The notes under the pieces were generated by a model that was not told the DNA's origin, ran no database searches, and saw only the letters and a list, made by a program, of their open reading frames with translations. DNA of 64,000 nt. Source: Eledone cirrhosa (lineage: Eukaryota). The stretch lies in the NCBI GenBank assembly GCA_964016885.1, contig OZ024741.1, positions 26,102,001 through 26,166,000 of the forward strand, written 5' to 3'. A program made the translations under genes and the position numbers. Positions 14,923 through 16,269 of this stretch are shown here, piece by piece; the first letter of the stretch is position 1; the number at the start of each line of letters is the position of its first letter.

Positions 14923-15077
14923 TATATATATATATATATAGTAAAATGTTCAAGACCCCGACGGCAGAGCTCAAGCCATTATATATATATATATATATAT
15001 ATATACATTATGAAGAGAGAAGAAACATTTAGATATAATTAGTAATAAAATGTATCATACCTAAACTGCTTCTAGAT

Positions 15078-15167
15078 TCCTCGACTACGTAGTTTCGTGG
15101 CATAAACAAAAACAATATATCATAAAGATATAGAGTCCTTGCGAGGTCTGCCGACTTATCAAGAGGA
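15078..15167 (-). ncRNA. Type I hammerhead ribozyme, U3-A8 core variant (family A, left arm)
   Basis: Reverse complement of 15912-16001. Confidence 0.75.
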
Positions 15168-15911
15168 TACCTCATTTTACTAGTCTCAAGAACGCGTCTA
15201 CACGACGTGAGAAAGAATCCCAAAAGGCGGAGGGGGAGATAGTCACGCGATATAACGGTCGAGAAACAGAGCTAAGCCTCTTATAACCCCGAAGAAAATA
15301 CCACGGAGGCGGAGGGGGTACTCATATCGAGGCCGTAGAAGAGGTGGTGAAGGAGGCGAGAAGTATGAGTAATGGAAGCTTTCCAGCTGTCCCCACACTT
15401 CAAAGATTGCTCGACCAGAGGGAGTTATTAACAATATATTTAGAAACACACATATACATGCGGACACACACATATATACATGAATGCATCCGCACCCAAC
15501 TGTGAGTTAAGGGTGCCAACTTCACCGATGTTGCTCAATGAATGACTGGGACAGACCAATCCGGTTGAACTAGACTGAACCAGTATCAGAGTTAAAAATA
15601 CATTATGAAGAGAGAAGAAACATTTAGATATAATTAGAAATAAAATGTATCATACCTAAACTGGTCGAGCAATCTTTGAAGTGTGGGGACAGCTGGAAAG
15701 CTTCCATTACTCATACTTCTCGCCTCCTTCACCACCTCTTCTACGGCCTCGATATGAGTACCCCCTCCGCCTCCGTGGTATTTTCTTCAGGGTTATAAGA
15801 GGCTTAGCTCTGTTTCTCGACCGTTATATCGCGTGACTATCTCCCCCTCCGCCTTTTGGGATTCTTTCTCACGTCGTGTAGACGCGTTCTTGAGACTAGT
15901 AAAATGAGGTA

Positions 15912-16001
15912 TCCTCTTGATAAGTCGGCAGACCTCGCAAGGACTCTATATCTTTATGATATATTGTTTTTGTTTATGCCACGAAACTACGTAGTCGAGG
16001 A
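15912..16001 (+). ncRNA. Type I hammerhead ribozyme, U3-A8 core variant (family A, right arm)
   Basis: Stem I tcctc/gagga; core TTGATAA; stem II gt(c)ggca...tgccac; GAAA; palindromic stem III ctacgtag; GUC cleavage triplet at 15994-15996. Confidence 0.75.
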
Positions 16002-16227
16002 ATCTAGAAGCAGTTTAGGTATGATACATTTTATTACTAATTATATCTAAATGTTTCTTCTCTCTTCATAATGTATTTTTAACTCTGATACTGGTTCAGT
16101 CTAGTTCAACTGGATTGGTCTGTCCCAGTCATTCATTGAGCAACATCGGTGAAGTTGGCACCCTTAACTCACAGTTGGGTGCGGATGCATTCATGTATAT
16201 ATGTGTGTGTCCGCATGTATCTGTGTG

Positions 16228-16269
<42 letters not shown>

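Follow-up and report, generated by a model that had tools for sequence, protein, structure and literature searches.

The locus at 15003..16234 of a 64-kb window (the window being the whole 64,000-nt stretch of Eledone cirrhosa DNA that was analyzed) is probably a recent insertion of a non-coding, multi-copy, 595-nt unit with a predicted hammerhead, a retrozyme-type non-autonomous derivative that would have been mobilized in trans, from linear RNA, by a Penelope-like element.

Layout and coding capacity of the locus

A repeat finder and self-BLAST placed a segment, X, at 15003-15068 and 15598-15663 and, inverted, at 16011-16076, with the two direct copies spaced 595 nt apart and identical at 65 of 66 positions. 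The order along the locus is X-Y-spacer-W-X followed by inverted Y-X-W, as the sequence-only reading had described, and the two arms stand head to head in the ribozyme sense. The left arm (15003..15663, minus strand) amounts to 1.11 units and reads X-W-spacer-Y-X as RNA; the right arm (15661..16234, plus strand) is one unit minus ~20 nt and reads Y-X-W. One complete unit occupies 15003..15597 (minus strand) and closes head-to-tail in contigs from public runs, in line with the ~595-nt monomer proposed earlier. The 20-nt segment confined to the left arm (15419..15438, minus strand) is bridged in contigs of two runs, labeled X1 and X4, and therefore belongs to the family unit.

The near identity of the arms, their ctg joint, and the (TA)n at both ends, all claimed from the letters alone, were recovered as well. 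X plus Y (15003-15418) matches its inverted counterpart (15661-16076) at 415 of 416 positions, and W plus X (15440-15663) matches 16011-16234 at 221 of 224, leaving four differences between the arms: CpG transitions at 15290 and 15563 and transversions at 15453 and 15638. The 5' ends of the arms are joined through a CTG common to both, a 3-base microhomology at 15661..15663. Their 3' ends sit in (TA)n runs at short AU microhomologies, and the left (14980..15005) and right (16234..16271) target flanks each overlap the arm end by a few bases. This combination of a partial tandem and an inverted, 5'-truncated copy within a microsatellite is the insertion form that characterizes Penelope elements. 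The CpG observed/expected ratio of the 595-nt unit (0.93 versus 0.46 in the 64-kb window; unit GC content, 42.5%) is in keeping with a young insertion.

An inversion of this kind might also be produced by an assembly fold-back or by a DNA-level rearrangement of a satellite unit. The arms are indeed more than 98% identical, and the strand-change joint at the center (15068/15418) was not seen in the four public runs examined, although runs without the joint may come from other individuals. However, X meets inverted Y rather than inverted X at the center, so that the locus has no palindrome axis there, which makes a fold-back artifact unlikely since a fold-back would mirror the sequence about that point. 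Further points against it are the four sites at which the arms differ, two of them CpG; the AU-rich microhomologies in (TA)n at which both outer ends stop; the use of the right-arm end point by other copies as well; and an older tandem-plus-inverted hammerhead cluster at 34008-34676. We consider fold-back or rearrangement very improbable.

Two features lie just upstream. A 39-nt island between two (TA)n runs (14941-14979) is 89% like 10860-10892, within a large AT-rich array. At 14748-14781 (plus strand), a decayed minimal hammerhead with U3, G8, and short stems can be made out by eye, below the scan threshold; the (TA)n at 14889 follows ~110 nt downstream, and the new element may have inserted next to this older hammerhead element.

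The earlier claim that the locus lacks a real ORF held up. None of 13 frames of 44 to 87 aa in or beside the element matched Pfam at cut-off, no frame longer than 87 aa overlaps the element, and the longest ATG frame on the closed unit is 76 aa. A protein-looking 72-aa antisense frame was rejected as a captured gene, with no Pfam match and no homologue among longer proteins (a weak test). No ORF for reverse transcriptase (RT) and GIY-YIG, which marks autonomous Penelope elements, lies between the repeats, and no frame in or beside the element resembles a GIY-YIG end or an ORF start. Lack of coding and a GC content below 50% are both retrozyme features. No Penelope partner was found among the six RT-bearing frames of the 64-kb window, all of which are LINE-type by their neighbors or sequence, and this counts against mobilization of linear RNA in trans. 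A crude scan of the same window with Penelope RT and GIY-YIG motifs also returned nothing.

Several other features of the window were recorded. LINE copies at 20592-25097, 27547-30473, and 46772-49900 encode an AP endonuclease and an RT followed directly by a PHD finger, with one open frame of 1042 aa. A Got1/SFT2-like gene at 35251-35934 (minus strand) is one uninterrupted frame; the 149 aa of it used as the query (35254-35700) share 91% identity with Argonauta hians and no more than 70% with named non-cephalopods, which places the host among the octopods. Twenty-one copies of a 75-nt repeat (96% match) occupy 50685-52259, with open frames of 486 to 544 aa on both strands, and 54-nt inverted arms that are 91% complementary and 15 nt apart at 18089-18211 are possibly a small fold-back or MITE-like remnant.

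The hammerhead motif and predicted RNA structure

Each arm carries one hammerhead, as the sequence-only reading proposed; a descriptor scan of both strands recovered it as a predicted type I motif, and none of 3,000 dinucleotide shuffles of the unit qualified as a hammerhead. The minus-strand motif (15078..15167) has its core at 15162-15156 and a predicted cut after 15083, and the plus-strand motif (15912..16001) has a predicted cut after 15996. The parts of the latter are stem I (15912-15916/15997-16001), core (15917-15923), stem II (15924-15982), GAAA (15983-15986), and palindromic stem III (15986-15995). Stem I has 5 bp, stem II spans 59 nt, and the palindrome of stem III 10 nt; a G10.1-C11.1 pair and GUC are also present. 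The core departs from the canonical C3 U4 G5 A6 N G8 A9 in having U3 and A8 in both arms, and these are also the family majority, with no variant row at either position in the X1 contigs. The remaining type I features are present, namely, G12 A13 A14, A15.1-U16.1, an H17 cut site, G10.1-C11.1, and three stems with stem I open, as type I requires. Rfam returned no matches at gathering score in the 64-kb window, and the 32 weak matches in 14800-16400, mostly from TA runs, included no hammerheads. The U3:A8 core and the 59-nt stem II are likely why Rfam gives no hammerhead here.

Predicted folding suggests that a single copy of the motif would rarely adopt the active form. The active fold is 1.1 kcal/mol above the minimum in an isolated 106-nt RNA and ~6.7 kcal/mol above it in a longer RNA. 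In context, its predicted probability is close to zero whether or not the downstream hairpin is included. Two motif copies co-fold at −67.3 kcal/mol versus −53.6 kcal/mol for two monomers, a gain of 13.7 kcal/mol via the palindromic stem III. We therefore expect a single monomer to be blocked, with activity in the dimer or when a protein assists, which is the behavior reported for Penelope hammerheads of other animals. We rejected the idea that the downstream hairpin is a post-transcription off-switch, the stem I probability being ≤0.02 at all 11 transcript lengths when upstream sequence was present.

When the unit was folded as a circle in the ribozyme sense, its z score was −6.4 and none of 100 shuffles was as stable; the antisense circle scored −1.5, and 12 flank controls scored −2.6 to +0.3. 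In 120-nt windows, z scores were −2.2 to −5.3 over W and X and −1.4 to +1.0 in six mostly-Y windows. These scores delimit a strand-specific structured domain 3' of the cut (15997..16234, plus strand), to which the partner reverse transcriptase would likely bind and on which it would prime. We also compared family variants with the predicted fold, using 19 of 24 variant rows; the five left out (15453 T>C, 15460, 15462, 15463, and 15465) fall within an AC-rich simple repeat, to which unrelated sequence aligns as well. Among the variants of stem II plus the post-cut domain, all six paired ones keep their pair and two are unpaired; after removal of one variant already present in the folded arm, the count is five of five. 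The chance probability is 0.016 to 0.066. In the rest of Y, four of nine variants keep their pair. This pattern offers modest support for a selected structure.

The window holds at least six hammerhead motifs, none of them detected by Rfam. The older cluster at 34008-34676 belongs to another family; it has a canonical-core type I motif at 34569 (plus strand) and a second copy that precedes it by ~305 nt, along with partial copies in inverted orientation and a (TA)n run 50 nt past the cut, and it shows the same tandem-plus-inverted layout at 83 to 92% identity. Canonical type I hammerheads with palindromic stem III also occur on the minus strand at 9638, 4988, and 4264, with (TA)n following the predicted cut after 51, 65, and 221 nt, respectively. 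The 9638 motif is 75% like the 34569 motif, and the 4264 motif lies inside 44-nt inverted arms beside a LINE end.

The family in public sequencing runs

Words of the unit were present in 20 of 24 listed runs, spanning 17 organism labels and 16 studies and including no run recorded as RNA. Contigs or reads were examined in four runs, comprising three of the 20 holders (X1, X4, and X16) and one same-study run, and the conclusions below draw on these four rather than on the small-share holders. In X1, 2,181 contig pieces covered all 30 bins of the unit, falling into four identity bands of 571, 558, 576, and 476 pieces; their summed depth was 97,000 to 563,000, which is not a copy number. The family is large and varied, in agreement with the multi-copy cephalopod family that the sequence-only reading had put forward, and the run contigs and the hammerhead scan likewise support its Penelope or retrozyme-type identity. 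The head-to-tail joint (15597 to 15003) occurs in four X1 contigs, in five variant forms, and in X4, and the ribozyme core is free of variants at ≥8% in X1. Such a head-to-tail repeated unit with a type I hammerhead is a feature of non-LTR retrozymes. Two consecutive direct units with full hammerheads, which a 2026 preprint takes as the mark of an active retrozyme, are not present at the locus, where there is one hammerhead per strand. Five X1 contigs pass into (AT)n at 15434, the end point of the right arm. Two alleles common to both arms are infrequent in X1 (15321, <0.1%; 15071, ~3% of summed depth), which points to a single source lineage, although X1 may represent another individual or species.

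These contigs bear on the possibility that an ordinary autonomous Penelope element left the arms behind as truncated pseudo-LTRs, in which case the unit would be its terminal repeat. The architecture, target, and U3:A8 core all match those of autonomous elements; moreover, short contigs cannot reveal the upstream sequence of any rarer, longer copies, and the contigs displayed leave out 76 loose ends. Against this, the unit closes on itself without a coding part, with its spacer bridged and its head-to-tail joint recurring, the share of X1 pieces that continue into unlike sequence is 0, and no frame in or beside the element looks like a GIY-YIG end or an ORF start. A remnant origin is, in our judgment, improbable.

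In X4, the unit forms one closed-loop contig of 621 nt (the unit plus a 30-nt overlap) at a depth of 7.8, versus 16 to 53 for the run's other listed contigs. X16 contains three read-sized pieces at depths of 2 to 2.6, two of them broken at the same GAGTC site, in junctions that we take to be typical of Hi-C ligation, and X22 raw reads cover the simple-repeat part only (2 of 30 bins). Unit words were found under 16 further organism labels (X4-X20), at trace depth or absent in those of the runs examined. An infectious, viroid-like circle that moves between unrelated hosts might explain both the spread over 20 runs, 17 labels, and 16 studies and the single closed loop in X4. However, the ribozyme is found in one polarity only, X16 looks like trace DNA, the X4 contig lies below the depth of its companions, and X22 matches in simple repeat alone, so that carry-over of a highly abundant repeat offers the simpler explanation and an infectious agent is extremely unlikely. 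As checked in three runs, the many low-level holders likely reflect such carry-over. Matches in sequence collections (2 in metagenomes, 16 in prokaryote genomes, and 0 and 3 among viruses) were dismissed as chance: none of the 21 loci exceeded 23 bases, and ~69 chance 17-mers are expected in the prokaryote genome set.

Proposed templates and priming, and relation to known elements

The layout, motif, family, host group, and lack of an ORF are observed; transcription, cleavage, a partner, and priming are inferred. The left arm starts 14 nt past a predicted cut position and ends ~80 nt past the next one, and the right arm ends 238 nt past the predicted cut, at a point that a long predicted hairpin immediately precedes. 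A left-arm start so near the cut has a chance of ~2.5%, and a right-arm length of one unit minus 20 nt has a chance of ~3.5%, both being coincidences at a single locus that were spotted post hoc. The left-arm ends point to a linear cut RNA; the right-arm length points to a circle or a fixed transcription start.

In the linear model, which we consider the probable one, tandem source copies would yield a longer-than-unit linear RNA, and the hammerhead, for which folding predicts a blocked monomer and a better-formed dimer, would cut only some of its sites. A Penelope endonuclease and RT supplied in trans would then cut both strands of a (TA)n tract, and reverse transcription of two RNAs would be primed, one on each strand, at internal AU-rich positions that adjoin a hairpin and lie 80 and 238 nt past the cut. 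The two cDNAs would extend toward each other, and their union at the 3-base microhomology would leave the arms head to head. (TA)n targets and partial tandems accompanied by an inverted, truncated copy are described as standard for Penelope insertions (PMC8557442), and a Penelope protein from an anole both cuts AT-rich DNA and extends it on the two strands (PMC11167929). This protein starts internally on uncut RNA, 85 to 92 nt past the cut by subtraction, and zero reads ending at the cut site are reported for the system (PMC11167929), which counts against a linear cut template. Retrozymes of 51 to 972 bp have been presented as Penelope derivatives (bioRxiv 10.64898/2026.07.22.740005), and Penelope elements are expanded in coleoids (PMC8967140).

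Alternatively, an element of the same kind may have been copied from a circular RNA made by hammerhead cleavage and ligation, with the RT running round and stopping short of, or displacing, its own start. The sequence-only reading held that a left arm of more than one monomer is what a circular or multimeric RNA would give. The multimeric part of that claim stands, but a longer-than-unit arm is not diagnostic of a circle: a partial tandem with an inverted copy is standard for Penelope insertion, and a linear cut RNA primed 80 nt past the next hammerhead cut fits the left-arm ends. The right arm, ~20 nt short of one unit, is explained by a circle no less well than by a linear template, and the strong fold of the unit circle in the hammerhead sense relative to the antisense and flank controls, the closed-loop X4 contig, and the abundant circles produced by mussel retrozymes (PMC7229834) all favor a circle. 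However, a closed-loop contig is equally expected from tandem DNA, and the folding signal is confined to 240 nt past the cut, with Y near zero. The left arm, moreover, stops beside the cut site, which would be an end of a linear RNA but not of a circle, and its X copies differ at 1 of 66 positions, three of the four arm differences falling in W plus the second X (3/224 versus 1/416; P = 0.13). At that P value, we did not accept the arm differences as proof of a non-identical tandem source. A circular template for the whole locus is possible but on the unlikely side.

The unit resembles metazoan non-LTR retrozymes (PMC7229834; bioRxiv 10.64898/2026.07.22.740005) in its non-coding head-to-tail form with one type I hammerhead, its GC content below 50%, its strong self-pairing in the ribozyme sense, and its many copies. 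At 595 nt, it is longer than the 150 to 450 nt given for retrozymes in PMC7229834 and within the 51 to 972 range of bioRxiv 10.64898/2026.07.22.740005. It differs from them in its U3:A8 core and 59-nt stem II, and the locus has 1.11 units plus an inverted arm instead of two direct hammerhead units. In the same preprint, eight of nine Xenopus retrozyme dimers are reported without cleavage in vitro (bioRxiv 10.64898/2026.07.22.740005), which, like the near-zero predicted probability of the active fold in context, counts against the linear cut model. In its motif features, the hammerhead also resembles those of the Schistosoma Cercyon and Drosophila virilis Penelope pseudo-LTRs, with which it shares a stem II bulge, a palindromic stem III suited to dimer cleavage, U3-A8, which is a pair-keeping covariation in the Schistosoma elements, and opposite-strand motif pairs a few hundred bases apart (100 to 700 bp in Schistosoma) (PMC4209133); unlike these elements, it has no RT/GIY-YIG ORF and a far longer stem II.

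The insertion itself is like complex Penelope insertions and non-autonomous Chlamys elements such as MRC1 in its partial tandem, inverted 5'-truncated copy, microsatellite target, and lack of a discernible target-site duplication (PMC8557442). Naiads and most Chlamys elements differ in being described as without hammerheads (PMC8557442), and the terminal redundancy here is 66 nt, with the ribozyme outside it. Internal priming soon past the hammerhead, two start sites, an AT-rich target, and extension of both strands are shared with the anole Poseidon element PAc (PMC11167929), here as inferred from one locus. In contrast, the putative start sites here are ~160 nt apart, compared with a 30- to 40-nt tail in PAc, and they are U/G-rich with short AU target microhomology, compared with an AC-rich loop and no homology (PMC11167929). 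Among the papers listed by our literature searches, we found no description of such a family from cephalopods, although cephalopod motifs may already figure in repeat libraries or in the 2014 and 2020 supplements.

The two arms may even record two templates in one event, an RNA with a hammerhead-made 5' end and a circle copied once round, although we hold this combination to be doubtful. If it is true, the young, abundant family would be a genome-wide natural record of Penelope-type hammerhead cutting in vivo, with the cuts setting template ends; a Penelope dimer would prime both target strands at once; and cephalopods would have their first retrozyme-type family with circles, which would also be the first with a U3:A8 core. 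Every component has published precedent, and the element itself is therefore not surprising. The in vivo role of Penelope hammerheads and the origin of tandem and inverted insertions are, however, stated open questions (PMC8557442), and a young, high-copy family provides test material for both, through the ends of its copies relative to the cut site. More broadly, this octopod genome has a repeat layer rich in predicted hammerhead motifs that Rfam misses.
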